A stretch of DNA of 64,000 nucleotides from Escherichia coli (lineage in GTDB: Bacteria; Pseudomonadota; Gammaproteobacteria; Enterobacterales; Enterobacteriaceae), in assembly GCF_002854065.1 (NCBI RefSeq), contig NZ_CP024147.1. One strand, written 5' to 3'. Positions 20,289-64,000 of this stretch are shown here, piece by piece. Within the stretch, counting starts at the first letter, position 1; each line of letters begins with the position of its first letter. Under the pieces are notes generated by a model. The model ran no database searches. It saw nothing but the letters and a program-made list of their open reading frames with translations, and was not told where the DNA came from. The position numbers were made by a program, and so were the translations under genes.

Positions 20289-21008
20289 ATGGATTTTTTT
20301 AGTGTGCAGAATATCCTGGTACATATACCAATAGGGGCAGGCGGTTATGATCTCTCATGGATCGAAGCGGTAGGCACGATCGCCGGGTTGCTGTGTATTG
20401 GCCTTGCCAGTCTGGAGAAGATCAGCAACTACTTCTTTGGCCTGATCAACGTCACCTTGTTTGGCATTATTTTCTTTCAGATTCAGCTGTATGCCAGCCT
20501 GCTATTACAGGTGTTTTTCTTTGCCGCGAATATTTACGGTTGGTATGCGTGGTCGCGACAAACCAGTCAGAACGAGGCGGAGTTGAAAATTCGCTGGTTA
20601 CCATTGCCGAAGGCATTAACCTGGCTGGCGGTTTGTGTCATTGCTATTGGTCTGATGACGGTATTTATCAATCCGGTGTTTGCATTTTTGACCCGCGTGG
20701 CAGTCATCATCATGCAAGCATTAGGATTACAGGTTGCGATGCCTGAACTACAACCGGACGCTTTCCCGTTCTGGGATTCTTGCATGATGGTGTTATCTAT
20801 CGTGGCAATGATTCTGATGACGCGTAAATATGTGGAAAACTGGCTGTTGTGGGTGATTATTAACGTGATTAGCGTCGTTATTTTTGCACTTCAGGGCGTT
20901 TACGCCATGTCTCTGGAGTACATCATCCTGACCTTTATTGCGCTCAACGGCAGCCGGATGTGGATCAACAGCGCACGCGAAAGAGGCTCACGCGCGCTGT
21001 CCCATTAA
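20289..21008 (+). CDS. pnuC: nicotinamide riboside transporter PnuC
   Basis: 239-aa membrane protein downstream of nadA. Confidence 0.95.
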
Positions 21009-21946
21009 TGGTGATGATGTGAATGGCCAGACACCCCTTCATTCAGGTGGCAGTCTGGCCCATGACAAGGTTGATATTCCATCTGAATGGTGGCGTGCTC
21101 AATCTGATAGTGATCCATCAGGTAGTGTTGGATCTGATCCAACAAGGCATCGTGATCGTGTGGCGGGATCACCTGCACATGCAACGTCATCACCGGCTTC
21201 TCGCCTACCATCCATACATGCACATGGTGCACATTGCGGACTTCCGGGATTTCCCGGCACATACGACGCTTCAGTTCAGCGATATCCAGCGATACCGGTG
21301 CACCTTCAAGTAATTCATTCACGCTATCTTTCAACAGTCGCCACGCGCTACGCAGAACCAGAAGCGACACCAGTATCGAGAGAATGGGGTCAGCAGGTGT
21401 CCAGCCGGTCCAGATAATAATCAACGCGGCAATAATAGCCCCAACCGAACCCAGCAGGTCCCCGAGCACATGCAGTGCCGCTGCTCGTACGTTGAGGTTT
21501 TTCTCTTCGCTGCCGTGATGAAGTAACCAGAAAGAAAGTATATTTGCCAGCAACCCAGCCACGGCAATTGCCATCATCATGCCGCCCTCGACCGGACGCG
21601 GCGTGCGGAAGCGTTCTATCGCCTCCCAGACAATCAAAATGGTAATTACCACCAGGGCGATGGCATTCACAAACGCCGCGAGCGTGGTCAGTCTTAGCCA
21701 ACCGAAAGTGTGGCGAATGGTGGGAGGACGACGTGAAAATTGCACGGCGAGTAGGGCGAAAAGCAGGGCGGCAGTATCGGTCAACATATGACCCGCATCG
21801 GCCAGCAAAGCCAGAGAACCAGAAAGAAAACCACCAACGACTTCTACCAGCATAAACCCGGCAGTCACGCCGAAAGCATACAACAAGCGACGAGCATTAT
21901 TATCTTCTGGCAGGTGTGAGGACGTGTGTGAGTGTGAGTGCGCCAT
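21005..21946 (-). CDS. zitB: zinc efflux transporter (cation diffusion facilitator) ZitB
   Basis: 313 aa, [27 protein letters not shown]..., His-rich termini; 4-nt convergent overlap with pnuC. Confidence 0.95.
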
Positions 21947-33667: not shown

Positions 33668-34726
33668 ATGCTGGAACTGAATTTTTCCCAGACGTTGGGC
33701 AACCATTGCCTGACTATTAATGAAACGCTGCCCGCCAATGGCATCACTGCTATCTTTGGCGTCTCCGGTGCCGGAAAAACTTCGCTGATTAACGCCATCA
33801 GTGGACTGACGCGCCCGCAAAAAGGGAGGATTGTCCTCAATGGTCGGGTACTAAATGATGCCGAAAAAGGTATCTGCCTGACGCCAGAAAAGCGTCGCGT
33901 TGGCTATGTTTTTCAGGATGCGCGGCTGTTTCCGCATTACAAAGTGCGTGGCAATCTGCGCTACGGCATGGCGAAAAGCATGGTCGATCAGTTCGATAAG
34001 CTGGTGGCGCTTTTAGGCATTGAACCGTTGCTTGACCGTTTACCAGGCAGCCTGTCCGGAGGCGAAAAACAGCGCGTAGCGATTGGGCGGGCTTTGCTGA
34101 CGGCACCAGAATTGCTGTTGCTGGATGAACCGCTGGCGTCACTGGATATTCCGCGTAAACGCGAACTGTTGCCTTATCTGCAACGTCTGACGCGGGAAAT
34201 CAACATCCCGATGTTGTATGTCAGCCATTCGCTGGATGAGATCCTCCATCTGGCAGACAGAGTGATGGTACTGGAAAACGGTCAGGTGAAAGCCTTTGGC
34301 GCGCTGGAAGAAGTCTGGGGTAGTAGCGTGATGAATCCGTGGCTGCCGAAAGAGCAACAAAGTAGCATTCTGAAAGTGACGGTACTTGAGCATCATCCGC
34401 ATTACGCGATGACTGCGCTGGCGCTGGGCGATCAGCATTTGTGGGTCAATAAGCTGGACGAACCGCTGCAAGCTGCGCTACGTATCCGCATTCAGGCTTC
34501 CGATGTTTCTCTGGTTTTACAACCGCCGCAGCAAACCAGCATTCGTAACGTATTGCGGGCAAAAGTTGTTAATAGTTATGACGACAACGGCCAGGTAGAA
34601 GTGGAGCTGGAAGTCGGCGGTAAAACGCTGTGGGCGCGTATCAGCCCGTGGGCCAGGGATGAACTGGCGATCAAACCTGGCCTGTGGCTGTACGCGCAAA
34701 TTAAAAGTGTGTCGATAACCGCCTGA
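33668..34726 (+). CDS. modC: molybdate ABC transporter ATPase
   Basis: 352 aa, Walker [10 protein letters not shown], signature LSGGEKQR. Confidence 0.97.
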
Positions 34727-35545
34727 TTAAATCAGGTGGCTATAAATGAACTGGGCAATGCTGTCGGTGGTGTTATCACCAATCACAATGTTGGCGCGCG
34801 CTTTTACCGCGTCATCGGCGTTGCCCATCGCCACGCCTGTACCAGCGGCCTCCAGCATACTGATATCATTAAAGTTATCGCCGAACGCCACGACGTTCTC
34901 CATCGACCAGCCTTGCGCCTCAACCCATTTCGTCAAACGTTTACCTTTGCTGTTGCCGCCGCGTGCAATATCAACCTGATCGTGCCAGGACCATTCACAC
35001 TCCAGTCCCAGTTCATGTTCGACATGCTTACCAAAATGCTGCAATTGCGGCAGGTCATCGTGCGTCAGGGCGAACTTCCATACGGCGTTAACTTGTTGCG
35101 CCGTTTCAGCCAGAGAAGCGACTTGTGTGAAAGTCGGACGCTGTTCCGGCGGCAGGGTTTGCGCCCAGTTAGACGTGCGAATGACATGCCCGGTCGGGTG
35201 CTCATAGACCATTGCATCATCCACATACATCAGACCGTGAATGTGGTGTTCATTCAGCATCTCAATGAGTTGCAGGGCTTTATTAACGGGCATTGGGTCC
35301 GCTTCCAGCACGGTTTTTGCATGATAATCATACAAATAGGTGCCATTACAGCAAATAGCAGGTGTATCCAGCGCCAGCGCCTGATAAAAAGGATGAATAG
35401 CGACGTGATGGCGACCTGTGACGATGATTAATTGATAGCCTGCTTCGCGAGCGCGGGCCAGGGCTTCTATCGATGAAGGAAGCAGGGTCTTTTTCGGGGT
35501 CAATAAGGTGCCGTCTAAGTCGAGAGCAATCACGCGTGTGGTCAT
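34727..35545 (-). CDS. ybhA: HAD-family sugar/pyridoxal phosphatase YbhA
   Basis: 272 aa from MTTRVIALDLDGTLL... (HAD DxD motif); track ORF trimmed by 34 codons. Confidence 0.93.
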   Translation of the reverse strand: MTTRVIALDLDGTLLTPKKTLLPSSIEALARAREAGYQLIIVTGRHHVAIHPFYQALALDTPAICCNGTYLYDYHAKTVLEADPMPVNKALQLIEMLNEHHIHGLMYVDDAMVYEHPTGHVIRTSNWAQTLPPEQRPTFTQVASLAETAQQVNAVWKFALTHDDLPQLQHFGKHVEHELGLECEWSWHDQVDIARGGNSKGKRLTKWVEAQGWSMENVVAFGDNFNDISMLEAAGTGVAMGNADDAVKARANIVIGDNTTDSIAQFIYSHLI

Positions 35546-36695: not shown

Positions 36696-36735
36696 CCGCT
36701 GATTTACCCGGCGCAGTCTCTCCTGCGCCGGTGTA

Positions 36736-37689
36736 TTAACCTATCTCCTGTAACGCATGTCTCTGGCGTTCGACGATATTGGTCCACAAATTGTCTTTAT
36801 CGTCAGTCCACAAATTAATCAGCAAGGCAAAAAAGCGTTCAGCTGCCGGAGAAAGCACGGCATCTTTGCGGCGAATAATCCCCAATGTCCGACGTATAAC
36901 GGGTTCCACCAGTGGGATACCAATAATCGAAGAATAGGGCGCATGGGGCATTGCCAGACCAGGAAGCGCTGAAATCCCCAGTCCTGCCTCCACCAGTCCT
37001 AATGACGTCGAAAGATGACGCACTTCGTAAAACCAGTCCAGCTTCCAGGGCTTGTCGGCTAGCTGTTGTTCTATCAACAGTCGGTTGCCGCTGGAGGAGC
37101 GTACGCCAATCATTTTGTAACCCACTAACTCCTGCCATTCTACAAGCTGCTTTTTGGCCAATGGATGGTCACGCCGACAGGCCAGCACGAACGGCTCGTT
37201 GACCAGTGGGCTAAAATCAATGGATGAATTTGTGACGTTGTTCATGTTTATGCCAAAGTCTGATTCGTTACATAGCACCGATTCCATGCAATTATTCGTG
37301 CCTTGTTCCAGAATCCGCACTTTAATATTGGGATACAGCTCATTAAATTTACCGATTGCCAGCGGTAAAAAATAAAATACTGCGGTCGGAATACACGCTA
37401 ACGTCACCATACCACGATGATAAGCATTCATATCACGAATATTAAAAAGCGTTTCATCGAATTTCTTTATTAATTCCCGCGCCTCCGGGAGCAACCTTTT
37501 TCCTGCTTTTGTTAACGTAACCTTGCGAGTTGTACGCTCAAATAGTTGAATATGTAAATCTTCCTCCATCTTTTTTATTCTTCGCGTTAATGCAGGTTGC
37601 GTAATGTTGAGTAATTTAGCGGCATTGTTAAATGAACTGGACTCTGCCAGTATGACAAATGCCTTCATACTTGATAATTCATGCTTCAT
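36736..37689 (-). CDS. ybhD: LysR-family transcriptional regulator YbhD
   Basis: 317 aa from MKHELSSMKAFVILAESSSFNNAAKLLNITQPALTRRIKKMEEDL... (HTH); track ORF trimmed by 21 codons. Confidence 0.93.
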   Translation of the reverse strand: MKHELSSMKAFVILAESSSFNNAAKLLNITQPALTRRIKKMEEDLHIQLFERTTRKVTLTKAGKRLLPEARELIKKFDETLFNIRDMNAYHRGMVTLACIPTAVFYFLPLAIGKFNELYPNIKVRILEQGTNNCMESVLCNESDFGINMNNVTNSSIDFSPLVNEPFVLACRRDHPLAKKQLVEWQELVGYKMIGVRSSSGNRLLIEQQLADKPWKLDWFYEVRHLSTSLGLVEAGLGISALPGLAMPHAPYSSIIGIPLVEPVIRRTLGIIRRKDAVLSPAAERFFALLINLWTDDKDNLWTNIVERQRHALQEIG

Positions 37690-37872
37690 TATTACTCCGG
37701 AAAATGGAAGCGTTGATTTTGGGTGGCTGGCCGTTAAAAATTTTAACTGCATTTAGCCAACTTAAATTAATGAAAAAATGTTATTAATCGTTGAGCTAAA
37801 GTCATTAGAGATGCTTTGCCCTTAATGTAACCATATCGCAATAAGTTATATTTTTAAATTGAGGGCATTATT

Positions 37873-38925
37873 ATGAAAAAAATACCCTGCGTGATGATGC
37901 GAGGTGGAACCTCGAGGGGCGCGTTCCTGTTAGCGGAACATTTACCCGAAGATCAAACGCAGCGCGATAAAATATTGATGGCAATTATGGGTTCCGGTAA
38001 CGATCTGGAAATTGACGGTATTGGCGGCGGTAATCCGCTGACCAGTAAAGTCGCCATTATTAGCCGTTCCAGCGATCCGCGTGCTGATGTCGATTATCTG
38101 TTTGCTCAAGTTATCGTCCATGAGCAACGTGTCGATACCACGCCTAACTGCGGCAATATGCTGTCTGGCGTTGGGGCATTCGCCATTGAAAATGGTTTGA
38201 TTGCAGCGACTTCGCCAGTTACCCGCGTACGTATCCGCAACGTCAATACGGGTACGTTTATCGAAGCTGATGTGCAAACACCAAATGGTGTTGTCGAGTA
38301 CGAGGGTAGCGCCAGAATTGACGGCGTACCGGGTACTGCCGCACCGGTTGCGCTCACTTTCCTGAATGCCGCTGGAACGAAAACCGGAAAAGTTTTCCCG
38401 ACTGATAATCAGATTGATTATTTTGACGATGTCCCGGTGACCTGTATCGATATGGCGATGCCAGTCGTCATTATTCCGGCTGAATATCTGGGAAAAACAG
38501 GCTATGAATTACCGGCGGAACTGGATGCCGACAAAGCATTATTAGCCCGCATTGAATCTATCCGTCTACAAGCGGGTAAAGCAATGGGCTTAGGTGATGT
38601 CAGTAATATGGTTATCCCTAAACCTGTGCTTATTTCTCCAGCGCAGAAAGGCGGGGCAATTAATGTGCGTTATTTTATGCCGCATTCTTGCCATCGCGCG
38701 TTGGCGATAACCGGTGCTATTGCTATTTCCAGTAGTTGTGCATTGGAAGGCACCGTCACCCGACAAATCATCCCTTCTGTAGGATATGGCAATATCAATA
38801 TTGAACCCCCCAGTGGTGCGCTCGACGTTCATTTAAGTAATGAAGGTCAGGATGCCACGACGTTACGCTCATCTGTTATTCGGACGACCAGAAAAATATT
38901 TTCCGGTGAAGTTTATCTTCCCTGA
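37873..38925 (+). CDS. ybhH: PrpF/AcnD-accessory family isomerase-like protein YbhH
   Basis: 350 aa, MKKIPCVMMRGGTSRGAFLL... Confidence 0.93.
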   Translation: MKKIPCVMMRGGTSRGAFLLAEHLPEDQTQRDKILMAIMGSGNDLEIDGIGGGNPLTSKVAIISRSSDPRADVDYLFAQVIVHEQRVDTTPNCGNMLSGVGAFAIENGLIAATSPVTRVRIRNVNTGTFIEADVQTPNGVVEYEGSARIDGVPGTAAPVALTFLNAAGTKTGKVFPTDNQIDYFDDVPVTCIDMAMPVVIIPAEYLGKTGYELPAELDADKALLARIESIRLQAGKAMGLGDVSNMVIPKPVLISPAQKGGAINVRYFMPHSCHRALAITGAIAISSSCALEGTVTRQIIPSVGYGNINIEPPSGALDVHLSNEGQDATTLRSSVIRTTRKIFSGEVYLP

Positions 38926-39000
38926 AAAGATTCGTTGTCAGGATAAGGACAATCAATAAAGGACTTCTGTATGAGTCATACAGAAAGAACAGGATTTTAA

Positions 39001-40434
39001 ATGAATAAGAAATCGTTATGGAAGCTAATTCTGATATTAGCGATCCCATGTATTATTGGCTTTATGCCAGCTCCGGCAGGATTAAGCGAACTGGCGTGGG
39101 TGCTTTTTGGTATTTACCTGGCGGCCATTGTGGGGCTGGTTATCAAGCCTTTCCCGGAACCTGTCGTACTGTTAATTGCCGTTGCTGCCTCCATGGTGGT
39201 GGTCGGTAACTTATCCGACGGTGCGTTTAAAACCACCGCCGTATTAAGCGGTTACTCTTCAGGTACTACCTGGCTGGTGTTCTCGGCGTTTACCTTAAGC
39301 GCCGCATTTGTGACCACCGGTTTAGGTAAACGTATTGCCTATCTGCTGATTGGTAAAATCGGTAACACCACGCTGGGTCTGGGTTACGTTACGGTATTCC
39401 TCGATCTGGTACTGGCTCCGGCAACACCGTCTAACACCGCGCGTGCGGGCGGCATTGTGTTACCGATCATCAACAGCGTGGCGGTAGCTTTGGGGTCCGA
39501 ACCGGAAAAAAGTCCGCGTCGTGTCGGACATTACCTGATGATGTCCATTTACATGGTCACCAAAACCACCAGCTATATGTTCTTTACCGCAATGGCGGGG
39601 AACATTCTGGCGCTGAAAATGATCAACGACATTCTGCACCTGCAAATTAGCTGGGGTGGATGGGCGCTGGCCGCCGGATTGCCGGGCATCATTATGCTGC
39701 TGGTCACCCCGCTGGTGATTTACACCATGTATCCACCAGAAATTAAGAAGGTGGATAACAAAACCATCGCTAAAGCGGGCCTTGCCGAACTGGGACCGAT
39801 GAAAATCCGCGAAAAAATGCTGCTCGGTGTCTTTGTGCTGGCGCTGCTGGGCTGGATTTTCAGTAAGTCTCTGGGGGTTGATGAATCCACCGTGGCAATC
39901 GTTGTTATGGCGACCATGCTGCTGCTGGGTATCGTTACCTGGGAAGACGTGGTTAAAAATAAAGGCGGCTGGAATACCTTAATCTGGTACGGCGGTATTA
40001 TCGGCTTAAGCTCCTTATTATCGAAAGTTAAATTTTTCGAATGGTTAGCTGAAGTCTTTAAAAATAACCTGGCATTTGATGGTCACGGTAACGTTGCTTT
40101 CTTCGTTATTATTTTCCTCAGCATCATCGTGCGTTATTTCTTCGCTTCCGGTAGTGCCTATATCGTTGCTATGTTACCTGTATTTGCCATGCTGGCGAAC
40201 GTCTCCGGCGCACCGTTAATGTTAACCGCGCTGGCACTGTTGTTCTCCAACTCCTATGGCGGCATGGTTACTCACTATGGCGGCGCGGCAGGTCCGGTCA
40301 TCTTTGGCGTGGGTTACAACGATATTAAATCCTGGTGGTTGGTCGGTGCGGTACTGACGATATTAACCTTCCTGGTGCATATCACCCTCGGCGTATGGTG
40401 GTGGAATATGCTGATCGGCTGGAACATGCTGTAA
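39001..40434 (+). CDS. ybhI: DASS-family anion transporter YbhI
   Basis: 477-aa polytopic membrane protein. Confidence 0.93.
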   Translation: MNKKSLWKLILILAIPCIIGFMPAPAGLSELAWVLFGIYLAAIVGLVIKPFPEPVVLLIAVAASMVVVGNLSDGAFKTTAVLSGYSSGTTWLVFSAFTLSAAFVTTGLGKRIAYLLIGKIGNTTLGLGYVTVFLDLVLAPATPSNTARAGGIVLPIINSVAVALGSEPEKSPRRVGHYLMMSIYMVTKTTSYMFFTAMAGNILALKMINDILHLQISWGGWALAAGLPGIIMLLVTPLVIYTMYPPEIKKVDNKTIAKAGLAELGPMKIREKMLLGVFVLALLGWIFSKSLGVDESTVAIVVMATMLLLGIVTWEDVVKNKGGWNTLIWYGGIIGLSSLLSKVKFFEWLAEVFKNNLAFDGHGNVAFFVIIFLSIIVRYFFASGSAYIVAMLPVFAMLANVSGAPLMLTALALLFSNSYGGMVTHYGGAAGPVIFGVGYNDIKSWWLVGAVLTILTFLVHITLGVWWWNMLIGWNML

Positions 40435-60758: not shown

Positions 60759-61516
60759 AAATGAATCTCCGCACTTAAAGGGGCATGATCAGAAAGGTGT
60801 CGCCATGTCCGCAGCGGCAACGCGGTTGGCGCGCTGGCGCTGGCATTTTTGACGTAGATCCTGTCCAGTCGTAGTAGAGGAAATTGCACCGGAAACGTGC
60901 GCGCCGGGCGTCCGTGGGCGCGGGTAAAAATCTCATCCAGTCCGGCCTGCACTTTTAACGGATGATTAGCTTTTTGCCGCCAGTCATTGAAATCACCCGC
61001 CACCAATACCGGTTCGCCGTCCGGTAGCTCATTCACCCATTCGGCGAGCATCGCAAGCTGCGCCTGACGGTGCGCCTCACGCAGGCCCAGATGTACGCAC
61101 ATCACATGAATCGCTTTTCCGGTCATCGGCGGCACAATGCGGCAGTAGAGCACGCCGCGCTTTTCCGCACCATCGACCGAAACATCGCGATTCTCATAAT
61201 GTTCAATGGGATAACGCGACAGTACGGCGTTGCCGTGATGCCCTTCCGGGTATACGGCATTGCGACCGTAGGCAAAATCGCTCCACATAGTGTCGGCGAG
61301 AAACTCGTAGTGCGAGGTATCGGGCCAGTTTTCCACATGCAGCGGATGAACTTCGTGTGCGCCCATCACTTCCTGCAGGCAAACAATATCGGCGCTGACG
61401 GTACGCACGGCATCGCGAAGTTCCGGCAAAATGAAGCGTCGGTTAAACGCGGTAAAGCCTTTGTGAATATTGATGGTGAGCACCTTGAACGAAAATTGTT
61501 GTGTTTGATCGGGCAT
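60755..61516 (-). CDS. ybhP: endonuclease/exonuclease/phosphatase-family protein YbhP
   Basis: 253 aa, [21 protein letters not shown]...; overlaps clsB start by 4 nt. Confidence 0.93.
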
Positions 61517-61648
61517 AATTTTCCTGTCTTTGCCTCTTATCTCATTGAAATAGTGTAGTCGGCGTCACAAAAAGGTGCGGTCTTACGGAATTTTCCGTAA
61601 AGTTCGGTACTCTGAGTAAGTAGAGATAAATTCTTCAGGAGAGAAGCC

Positions 61649-62059
61649 ATGAAGTGGCAACAACGTGTTCGTGTCGCAACGGGTCTAAGTTGCTGGCAGA
61701 TTATGTTGCATTTACTGGTAGTGGCGCTGCTGGTGGTGGGCTGGATGAGTAAGACTCTGGTTCACGTCGGCGTGGGATTATGCGCACTGTATTGTGTCAC
61801 GGTAGTGATGATGCTGGTGTTTCAGCGCCACCCCGAGCAACGCTGGCGTGAGGTGGCAGACGTGCTGGAAGAGCTGACCACGACCTGGTATTTTGGCGCA
61901 GCGCTGATTGTGCTGTGGCTGTTGTCCCGCGTACTGGAAAACAACTTTTTGCTGGCAATTGCAGGGCTGGCAATCCTTGCCGGCCCGGCGGTAGTGTCTT
62001 TGCTGGCGAAAGATAAGAAGTTACATCACCTTACGTCTAAACATCGCGTACGCCGCTGA
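61649..62059 (+). CDS. ybhQ: inner membrane protein YbhQ
   Basis: 136 aa, [33 protein letters not shown]... Confidence 0.9.
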
Positions 62060-63127
62060 CCCTGTCGTGGCCGTTATCACCAGTAGCGGCCACAAACTAT
62101 TCCACACAATATCCAGACTCGCATCCTTCAAATAAATCTGCTTGGTAATGTCCGTAAAGTGGCGAATAGGATTAATCCACGTCAGGTTTTGCAGCCATAC
62201 TGGCATGTTTTCCACCGGCGAAACGTAACCGGAAAGGAGAATGGCGGGCATCATAAAGACAAACACGCCGATAAACGCCTGCTGTTGTGTTGAACAGAGT
62301 GATGAAATCAACAGACCGAATCCCACCAGCGATAAACCATAAATCACCATCGTAAAGTAGAACAGCGCCAGCGATCCGGCGAAGGGGATTTGATACGCCC
62401 AGATACCAATCGCCAGCACAATGGTGGCCTGGAAGGTGGCGACAATTAACGCCGGTACGGCTTTGCCGATGAAGATCTGCCAGGTGGTGAGCGGCGAAAC
62501 CAGTAGCTGATCGAGCGTACCTTGTTCACGTTCGCGGGCGACGGAAAGTGAAGTGACGATCATTACGCCAATAGTGGTGATCATGGCGATCAGCGACGGC
62601 ACCACAAACCATTTGTAGTCGAGATTCGGGTTATACCAGTTGCGTACCACCAGCTCGCTGTTGTTAGGTTTCGGTTTTCCTTCCAGCAGCTCCTGCTGAT
62701 AATTTTTGACGATCTGTTGCAGGTAGTTGGCGGCAATTTGCGCACTGTTGGAGTTACGCCCGTCGAGGATCAACTGCAACGGCGCGGTCTGGAAGGTATC
62801 CAGTTTGCGCGAGAAGTCAGCCGGGAAACGCATCAGGAGTAACGCCTTTTGTGTGTCGATGGTTGGGCGGATCTCCTGTGGGCTTTTCAGCAGCAGCACA
62901 TGGGTAAAGGCGCTGGCGCGGGCAAAACGTTGGGTCAGCTCCACCGAATGCTCGCCGTTATCTTCATCGTAGATGGCGATGGTGGCGTTGGTCACTTCCA
63001 GCGTGGCGGCGAACGGGAACAGGATCACCTGAATCAGCACGGGTAAAATCAGAATCGCGCGGGTTTGTGGTTCGCGCAGCAACGACTGCAACTCTTTGCG
63101 AATTAACGTCCATAAGCGATGAAACAT
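62021..63127 (-). CDS. ybhR: ABC-2-type transporter permease YbhR
   Basis: 368 aa, [33 protein letters not shown]... Confidence 0.95.
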
Positions 63128-63137
63128 GCTCTTCTCC

Positions 63138-64000
63138 CTAATCCAGCCGACGTTTGGTTTTCAGCCACGTCAGGCCGATAAACATCACCGCCGAAGCGAT
63201 CAAAAACAGTACGTTCACCACCAGCACCACTGGAATATTCCCGGCGAGGAACAGGCTTTGCAGGGTGCTGACGAAATAACGTGCGGGAATAATGTACGTC
63301 ACCGCGCGGATCACCGCGGGCATACTGTCGATCTGAAAAATAAAGCCGGAAAGCATAATCGACGGCAGAAAAGCCGCGTTCAGAGCGACCTGAGCGGCAT
63401 TGAACTGGTTGCGGGTAATCGTGGAAATCAGCAGCCCCATCCCCAGGGTACTGAGTAAAAACAGGCTGGAGATAAAAAACAGAATCAGCAGCGACCCGCG
63501 ATACGGCACGCCGAGAATAAACACTGACACCAGCATACACAGCAGCATCGCCAGCATCCCGAGAAAGTAATAGGGGATCAGCTTACACAGCAGCAGTTCC
63601 AGACGGGTGATTTCCGTGGAGAGCAGGGCTTCCATGGTGCCGCGCTCCCACTCCCGCGCCACCACCAGCGAGGTGAGGATCGCGCCGATAACCGTCATGA
63701 TAATGGTCACCGCACCGGGGATAATAAAGTGCTGGCTAATCGCCGCCGGGTTAAACCAGTAACGGGTCTGGACGTCGATAAGCGGTTCAAACGACTGCCC
63801 GTTGTCCTCCGCCCGCTGCATTTGCCAAATCTGCCAGATCCCTTCGACATACCCCTGCACAAAGTTAGCGGTATTAGGCTCACTGCCGTCGGTGATCACC
63901 TGAATCGGTGCGGTGGCGTTGGCGCGCTCCATCTGTTCGGCGAAATCCACGGGAATCACCACCAGACCGCGAATTTTCCCCGCCTGCATTTTGGCGATCA
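63138..64000 (-). CDS. ybhS: ABC-2-type transporter permease YbhS, C-terminal part (5' end beyond window)
   Basis: Frame open from stop at 63138 to the window end; paralogous to ybhR; track ORF 63138..63989 begins at an internal Met. Confidence 0.9.

Follow-up and report, generated by a model that had tools for sequence, protein, structure and literature searches.

A conserved 39-bp tail-to-tail overlap of ybhQ and ybhR and the abutting stop codons of modC and ybhA: compact convergent gene junctions in Escherichia coli

Two convergent gene junctions found in a 64,000-nucleotide stretch of Escherichia coli DNA (contig NZ_CP024147.1, assembly GCF_002854065.1; the whole of this stretch is referred to here as the window), those of ybhQ with ybhR and of modC with ybhA, are most likely compact arrangements in which each transcription unit ends inside the coding sequence of its neighbor. 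A probability of roughly 75% may be given to the reading that they represent a stable and tolerated form of packing, which would involve at most weak mutual interference and probably no dedicated switch. Both the overlap and the abutment are real, conserved, and mechanistically understandable, and they are already known, having been annotated and catalogued, with their RNA ends mapped.

The sequence-only reading of the window had described a tail-to-tail overlap of 39 bp between ybhQ and ybhR, which is borne out by the listing of open reading frames, the raw sequence, and the RefSeq annotation, and had stated that the stop codons of modC and ybhA abut, which is also what their positions (Table 1) and RefSeq indicate. 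All four of these coding sequence ends are the same in the RefSeq annotation of a 100%-identical chromosome (E. coli CUWW06, NZ_CP182139.1), and the ybhQ/ybhR locus is found in 5423 of the 5426 complete E. coli genomes. The ybhR gene is the last of the operon ybiH(cecR)-ybhGFSR, and its codons lie in register with those of ybhQ on the opposite strand, with position 1 facing position 3 and position 2 facing position 2, while the TGA stop of ybhQ is the antisense of the TCA codon of Ser357 in ybhR. When convergent overlapping protein-coding genes are defined by shared 3' nucleotides, ybhQ and ybhR belong to this class, whereas modC and ybhA, which have neither intergenic nor shared bases, form an abutting pair and do not.

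A third spacer-less convergent junction of the window is that of pnuC (+, 20289..21008) and zitB (-, 21005..21946), the coding sequences of which overlap by 4 bp (21005-21008), and this pair is likewise included in the published list of excludons (PMC12288877). Intergenic DNA is lacking in three of the eight convergent junctions of the window (pnuC/zitB, modC/ybhA, and ybhQ/ybhR). In the region between modC and ybhQ, at ~36700-40000, the otherwise identical NZ_CP182139.1 is 903 bp shorter and carries IS1 with a truncated ybhD-like gene and a truncated ybhI gene on its sides, a rearrangement that is not present in the window, which thus belongs to another strain.

Table 1. Genes, RNA ends, and structural features of the two convergent junctions, in window coordinates.
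Feature	Position	Strand	Description
modC CDS	33668..34726	+	TGA stop 34724-34726
ybhA 3' UTR	34626..34726	-	~101 nt, antisense within the last 33 modC codons; 3' end at MG1655 797512-797513 by TRS (PMC10687069)
Palindromic hairpin CCGCCTGAT-TAA-ATCAGGTGG	34719..34739	both	Spans both stop codons; z = -3.3 on +, -3.5 on -; no U tract
ybhA CDS	34727..35545	-	272 aa as annotated; TAA stop read 34729 to 34727 (TTA on +)
ybhQ CDS	61649..62059	+	136-aa inner-membrane protein, Pfam PF11076; TGA stop 62057-62059
Rho termination region, ybhR strand	~61948	-	MG1655 824929, Rho score 3.9; ~73 nt past the ybhR stop, inside ybhQ (PMC7815308)
ybhR CDS	62021..63127	-	368-aa ABC-2 permease; TAA stop read 62023 to 62021
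ybhQ/ybhR dual-coding stretch	62021..62059	both	39 bp, from the ORF listing and the raw sequence
GC-rich hairpin in the ybhQ 3' UTR	62067..62093	+	Consensus GTGGCCGC-N11-GCGGCCAC; inside ybhR codons 345-354
ybhQ mRNA 3' end	62099..62100	+	MG1655 825079-825081; ~7 nt past the hairpin 62067-62093
Rho termination region, ybhQ strand	~62201	+	MG1655 825182, Rho score 3.9; antisense to ybhR (PMC7815308)

Convergent overlaps of coding sequences form a minority class that has been described before, E. coli having 75 such pairs (Huvet & Stumpf 2014, PMC4161906), and long overlaps have been judged to be real in the convergent orientation only (Palleja et al. 2008, PMC2478687). As in the conserved convergent overlapping genes of these studies (Rogozin et al. 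2002, cited in PMC2478687; PMC2478687; PMC4161906), ybhQ and ybhR are arranged tail-to-tail, with the position of a stop codon setting the overlap. The 39 bp fall below the 60-bp class inspected in the convergent-overlap studies (PMC2478687, PMC4161906), and conservation was followed here across a whole family, whereas most of the long convergent overlaps of PMC2478687 are confined to close relatives.

Stops in the ybhQ frame, which runs in register and antisense to ybhR, are possible only opposite TTA, CTA, and TCA codons, and these represent 13 of the 368 codons of ybhR, which gives a probability of ~0.65 for a run of 12 open codons. Given this, the length of the overlap is unsurprising, and ybhQ ends at the first stop-capable codon upstream of the ybhR stop (the TCA of Ser357). 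The remarkable feature of the overlap is its exact conservation, rather than its length.

This conservation was followed through a scan for YbhQ, using one genome per species, which provided 80 enterobacterial loci, in each of which both stops were located. The identical 39-bp overlap was present in 65 loci and, on inspection, in L023, L038, and L049, i.e., in ~68 of the 80 Enterobacteriaceae species and in roughly 25 genera, including Escherichia, Salmonella, Citrobacter, Enterobacter, Leclercia, Kluyvera, Phytobacter, Atlantibacter, Siccibacter, Mangrovibacter, Buttiauxella, and Cedecea. The three loci that were added on inspection had been candidates for the loss of the overlap, and were rejected as such, being no more than split ybhR alignments with an intact junction. 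The sequence-only reading had suggested that the choice of the stop be checked against orthologues, in which an earlier conserved stop in ybhQ would remove the overlap; none was found among the 80 enterobacterial loci, and the stop retains the same position in the ~68 species. Both stops are conserved in these orthologues, as is expected of genuine stops, and the fourfold site of ybhR that faces the ybhQ stop does not vary.

The overlap is lacking in 11 loci, in which gaps of 2-206 bp separate the two genes (Raoultella, some Kosakonia, and a few others). Each of the 11 has an intact YbhR C-terminus and a YbhQ tail that has been swapped for ...FGLHQGGNAANPxKHR (stop), and in the gap of Raoultella, 34-35 of 42 bases match the ERIC core as defined by the standard ERIC1R/ERIC2 primers. 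Given the intact YbhR and the ERIC-like sequence in the gap, the non-overlapping state looks derived, by way of the insertion of a repeat element, and these comparisons of sequences indicate that the overlap is ancestral to the Enterobacteriaceae and base-exact.

The ERIC/IRU-like repeat itself lies between ybhQ and ybhR in Raoultella, with remnants elsewhere (L073:3435-3619 and L078:3438-3645, and also L081, L079, L067, L028, L030, and L032). The element abolishes the overlap and provides the new C-terminal tail of YbhQ (...AANPxKHR, stop), and in L078, the segment composed of the tail plus the element is duplicated. In the loci that carry the element, both the C-terminus of YbhR and the hairpin internal to its gene remain intact.

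Variants of YbhQ with 161-165 aa were also considered as a possible stop-loss lineage, and this was rejected: the variants are frameshifts of scattered occurrence, each of them having 1-5 members in comparison with the 1122 of the normal form, and are probably assembly errors or sporadic mutations. Single-base frameshifts in ybhQ enter a + strand frame (+1 relative to ybhQ, at 62060-62135), and the frameshift variants in the database are all 161-165 aa in length because this frame is open to 62135.

The distribution of variation within the overlap provides a view of the constraint on each of the two reading frames. The C-terminus of YbhR is conserved there as S[AV]AY[AMWL]MFRR[KN][VI][MA], and the variation in the tail of YbhQ is found mainly at the third positions of ybhR. 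The ybhR third positions that face the last ybhQ codons are frozen, with an entropy of 0.33 bit at 62051 and 0 bit at both 62054 and 62057, the last of which faces the ybhQ stop and is invariant in 66 of 66 taxa, in contrast with the third positions just beyond the stop (62060, 62063, and 62066), which reach 1.5-2.0 bits. Only four of the 153 fourfold sites of ybhR are invariant, and these include S357, which faces the TGA of ybhQ, and A353, which is part of the stem of the hairpin. Low-entropy fourfold sites, in turn, account for 5 of the 11 in the last 23 codons of ybhR versus 8 of the 142 elsewhere (p = 7e-4).

As the S357 site is invariant while its neighbors vary freely, the stop of ybhQ is under selection, and at the level of the alignments, selection is visible on the ybhQ frame together with the stop and the basic residues at the end of the protein. 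This constraint on the last ybhQ codons indirectly favors the view that both of the overlapping tails may be translated. The C-terminus of YbhR dictates most of the sequence of the overlap, whereas the tail of YbhQ drifts by way of the synonymous positions of ybhR, apart from the final two basic residues and the stop, which remain fixed. The ybhQ frame crosses the last 12 codons of ybhR in antisense, in register, until it ends at a TGA provided by the reverse complement of the Ser357 codon.

The RNA ends at this junction are available from published datasets, in which the MG1655 coordinates of 3' ends were converted to window positions by sequence identity. The primary terminus of ybhQ was placed by TRS at MG1655 825079-825081, right after the hairpin (PMC10687069), and Term-seq recovered position 825080 in at least two conditions, classified as "primary ybhQ, antisense ybhR" (PMC7815308), so that the 3' UTR of ybhQ has 41 nt and is antisense to ybhR. 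The Rho regions were derived from a bicyclomycin experiment (PMC7815308) with 800-nt windows, and their positions are coarse as a result; that of the + strand lies ~100 nt beyond the 3' end of ybhQ. The RNA past each stop is rich in C (a C:G ratio of 2.0 at 62060-62109 on the + strand, and 58:38 on the - strand, downstream of ybhR), a composition that suits Rho. A further 3' end, published from Term-seq at MG1655 824690 (~61709, +), is located 60 nt inside the ybhQ open reading frame, with a Rho score of 0.6 and an intrinsic-terminator score of 4.9, and could mark either a 5' fragment of ybhQ or transcription that terminates prematurely.

Two of the features by which convergent excludons are recognized can be read from these data. 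Overlapping transcripts occur in vivo according to the published maps, in which the 3' end of ybhQ falls in ybhR, the - strand Rho region in ybhQ, and the 3' end of ybhA in modC, and the terminator lies within the other unit, given that both the hairpin 62067-62093 and the end at 62099-62100 are in the coding sequence of ybhR. The sequence-only reading had held that the ends of modC and ybhA leave no room for terminators, and this stands in part, as there is no intergenic space at either junction, but the determinants of the 3' ends (the hairpin and the Rho regions) sit inside the coding sequences of the partners. It had also seen transcriptional interference or antisense effects as implied by such arrangements. 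The overlap of sense and antisense RNA is indeed present in the published maps, but a regulatory effect can only be suggested from it, and the literature consulted yielded no experiment in which expression was cross-dependent.

The hairpin at 62067-62093 starts eight bases past the stop of ybhQ, and the 3' UTR has a folding energy of -18.5 kcal/mol, the z value being -5.25 for the + strand and -2.2 for the - strand. Of the cells of the hairpin, 92.7% are paired on the + strand over 66 taxa, and the core stem was recovered by RNAalifold. Compensatory changes include GC>AU, observed six times, in which a Thr>Ile replacement is paired with a synonymous Leu change (TTG>TTA), and CG>UA, observed three times. 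In the eight core pairs, single changes produce G-U pairs 19 times and mismatches 10 times when read on the + strand, but 8 and 21 times, respectively, on the - strand, an asymmetry (G-U versus A.C) that favors an RNA structure on the + strand, in a suggestive rather than decisive manner, as the counts refer to related sequences and not to independent events.

In part, this hairpin is conserved because the WPL and Ala/Thr codons are themselves conserved. Three distant homologues of YbhR that have no ybhQ keep the WPL..I.A motif and form no hairpin. The hairpin is still present in the taxa in which the inserted element shifts the ybhQ stop 35-200 nt away, and a position right after the stop is therefore inessential. 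It fails as a canonical intrinsic terminator, given that it has a stem but no U tract, the E. coli tail being AAACUAUUCC and that of the consensus AAACUUCCCCAG. A scan for canonical intrinsic terminators at both junctions produced only weak matches, which lie within coding sequence, while the mapped ends had none, and the Rfam covariance models had no matches at E <= 1 over 61000-63200. A second hairpin of 10 bp, also GC-rich, at 61964-61986, inside ybhQ and downstream of the ybhR stop, was considered as an element and rejected, as it is paired in only 77% (+) or 60% (-) across taxa. It is perfect only in Escherichia, follows the amino-acid sequence, and looks like a by-product of the GLAILAGP codons.

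In the case of modC and ybhA, the zero gap is found in all eight of the other genera sampled. A hairpin comparable to that at 34719-34739 (-11.5 kcal/mol or stronger) is found at the junction in eight of nine genera, and has been lost in Kosakonia. No claim is made for this palindrome as a terminator, since the mRNA of ybhA ends elsewhere and the palindrome is missing in Kosakonia. No 3' end has been reported for modC in the two 3'-end datasets (PMC10687069 and PMC7815308). A published Term-seq 3' end on the + strand at ~35495 (MG1655 798381) is antisense to the 5' part of ybhA, and could belong either to a separate antisense RNA or to modABC transcripts that read through all of ybhA.

The preferred reading, that of a tolerated packing, can be put together from these elements. 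The mRNA of ybhQ ends ~7 nt past a conserved hairpin that is written into codons 345-354 of ybhR, and the untranslated C-rich RNA past the ybhQ stop would be a substrate for Rho, with the hairpin fixing or protecting the 3' end. The end itself may arise through hairpin-dependent termination, through Rho termination followed by exonuclease trimming, or through the collision of polymerases. On the other strand, the ybiH-ybhGFSR transcript would extend ~70 nt beyond the ybhR stop, into ybhQ, until it is halted by Rho, and when both units are transcribed, their RNAs would be complementary over ~150 nt (about 61948-62100). At the second junction, where the stops of modC and ybhA abut within a small palindrome, the mRNA of ybhA reaches ~100 nt into modC in antisense.

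These features are close to the general model of Rho termination of untranslated or antisense RNA with trimming back to a stem-loop (Dar & Sorek 2018, Peters et al. 2012, summarized in PMC7815308), given that ybhQ and ybhR likewise have Rho regions past both of their stops and C-rich RNA, and that the ybhQ end likewise lies a few nucleotides past a stable hairpin with no U tract (PMC7815308). Unlike the general model, however, the candidate protecting hairpin of ybhQ sits inside the coding sequence of another gene, and covaries.

A different reading is that both pairs are dedicated excludon switches, in which ybhQ, which responds to envelope stress, and the YbhFSR efflux operon, which is under the control of CecR, exclude each other by way of the ~150-nt duplex (through RNase III) and/or head-on polymerases, while ybhA damps modABC. 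The catalogue of ExcludonFinder (Sanmartin et al., NAR 2025, PMC12288877), which forms the E. coli excludome, includes modC-ybhA and ybhQ-ybhR in its Table 1 among 165 convergent excludons, both seen in at least 50% of 58 RNA-seq samples, and most of the convergent pairs in this catalogue have the terminator inside the transcription unit of the neighbor (PMC12288877). However, the listing documents the overlap of RNAs, and is no evidence of regulation, because any expressed pair with overlapping coding sequences must score as an excludon by construction. A switch is also favored by the higher synteny of excludon pairs in comparison with other pairs, by the conservation of the overlap, the stop codon, and the hairpin across the family, and by the ~5-fold induction of ybhQ upon sigmaE induction. 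Against this, the dual-coding constraint accounts for most of the conservation of the 39 bp, because indels would damage both proteins, the ERIC-like insertion that separates the two genes is tolerated in several genera, and a search of the literature found no reciprocal expression data for either ybhQ/ybhR or modC/ybhA.

Antisense regulation has been demonstrated in a comparable convergent pair, mscL-arfA (PMC10070815), which, like ybhQ/ybhR, is an enterobacterial tail-to-tail pair in which a 3' UTR is complementary to the 3' coding sequence of the partner. In mscL-arfA, however, the regulation was shown by deletion and complementation (PMC10070815), whereas ybhQ/ybhR and modC/ybhA are likened to it by their arrangement only. 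On balance, dedicated switches at these junctions are considered unlikely. It is more doubtful still that the frozen stop, the covarying hairpin, and the family-wide 39-bp overlap amount to a selected cis-antisense module which couples ybhQ to the YbhFSR efflux pump; if this were true, the induction of ybhQ would lower the output of ybhR (or the reverse), by duplex formation or head-on transcription, in a manner conserved across the Enterobacteriaceae.

The hairpin 62067-62093 may also be read as an overlapping bidirectional terminator of the collision type, which pauses the polymerases in both directions and has them released by head-on and trailing collisions, with no need for either a U tract or Rho. 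As in the overlapping bidirectional terminators already described (Ju et al. 2019; Wang et al., bioRxiv 10.1101/2022.10.23.513370), the element lies at a convergent junction and forms a palindromic, GC-rich hairpin that lacks a U tract, with a sharp ybhQ 3' end a few nucleotides past the stem, and the model of Wang et al. describes exactly such an element. The model nevertheless fits poorly, because the hairpin lies inside ybhR, 44-72 nt upstream of its stop, where termination would truncate ybhR, and because there are Rho regions nearby on both strands, whereas the collision class is described as Rho-independent. In the published datasets (PMC10687069, PMC7815308), moreover, the hairpin has a + strand end only, no - strand 3' end being reported there; the signal of the - strand is located 120 nt from it, and each of the two signals is a Rho region. 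The model requires dense traffic, whereas the expression of both genes is weak, and a terminator of this type is rather improbable here.

Finally, that the overlap reflects an artefact of annotation or an accident of a neutral kind, with the tail of YbhQ as non-functional read-through and the hairpin as a by-product of the YbhR codons, is very improbable, as the conservation data largely refute it already: although a 12-codon open antisense run is expected by chance, the tail of YbhQ is poorly conserved as protein (and wholly replaced in the ERIC-bearing taxa), and the left-hand hairpin is not conserved, ~68 species have the ybhQ stop at an identical base, the fourfold sites of ybhR that face the last ybhQ codons are frozen while the adjacent ones are saturated, the compensatory changes in the hairpin match a non-synonymous substitution to a synonymous one, no hairpin is formed in the distant YbhR genes that share the peptide motif, and the mapped ybhQ 3' end is directly past the hairpin.

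The ExcludonFinder catalogue (PMC12288877) is based on RNA-seq coverage, and does not deal with the overlap of the coding sequences, its conservation, the constraint on the stop, or the hairpin. What is added here to the known junctions is an overlap that is ancestral and base-exact, the visible selection on the ybhQ stop and on a hairpin located in the synonymous sites of ybhR, and the observation that the overlap may be lost through an ERIC-like insertion, which can remove it with no harm to ybhR. The significance of this beyond bookkeeping is small. The absence of intergenic space does not equal the absence of a terminator, and ybhQ/ybhR provide a clean, small example of convergent genes that have no spacer, and a convenient site at which regulation by overlap may be tested.
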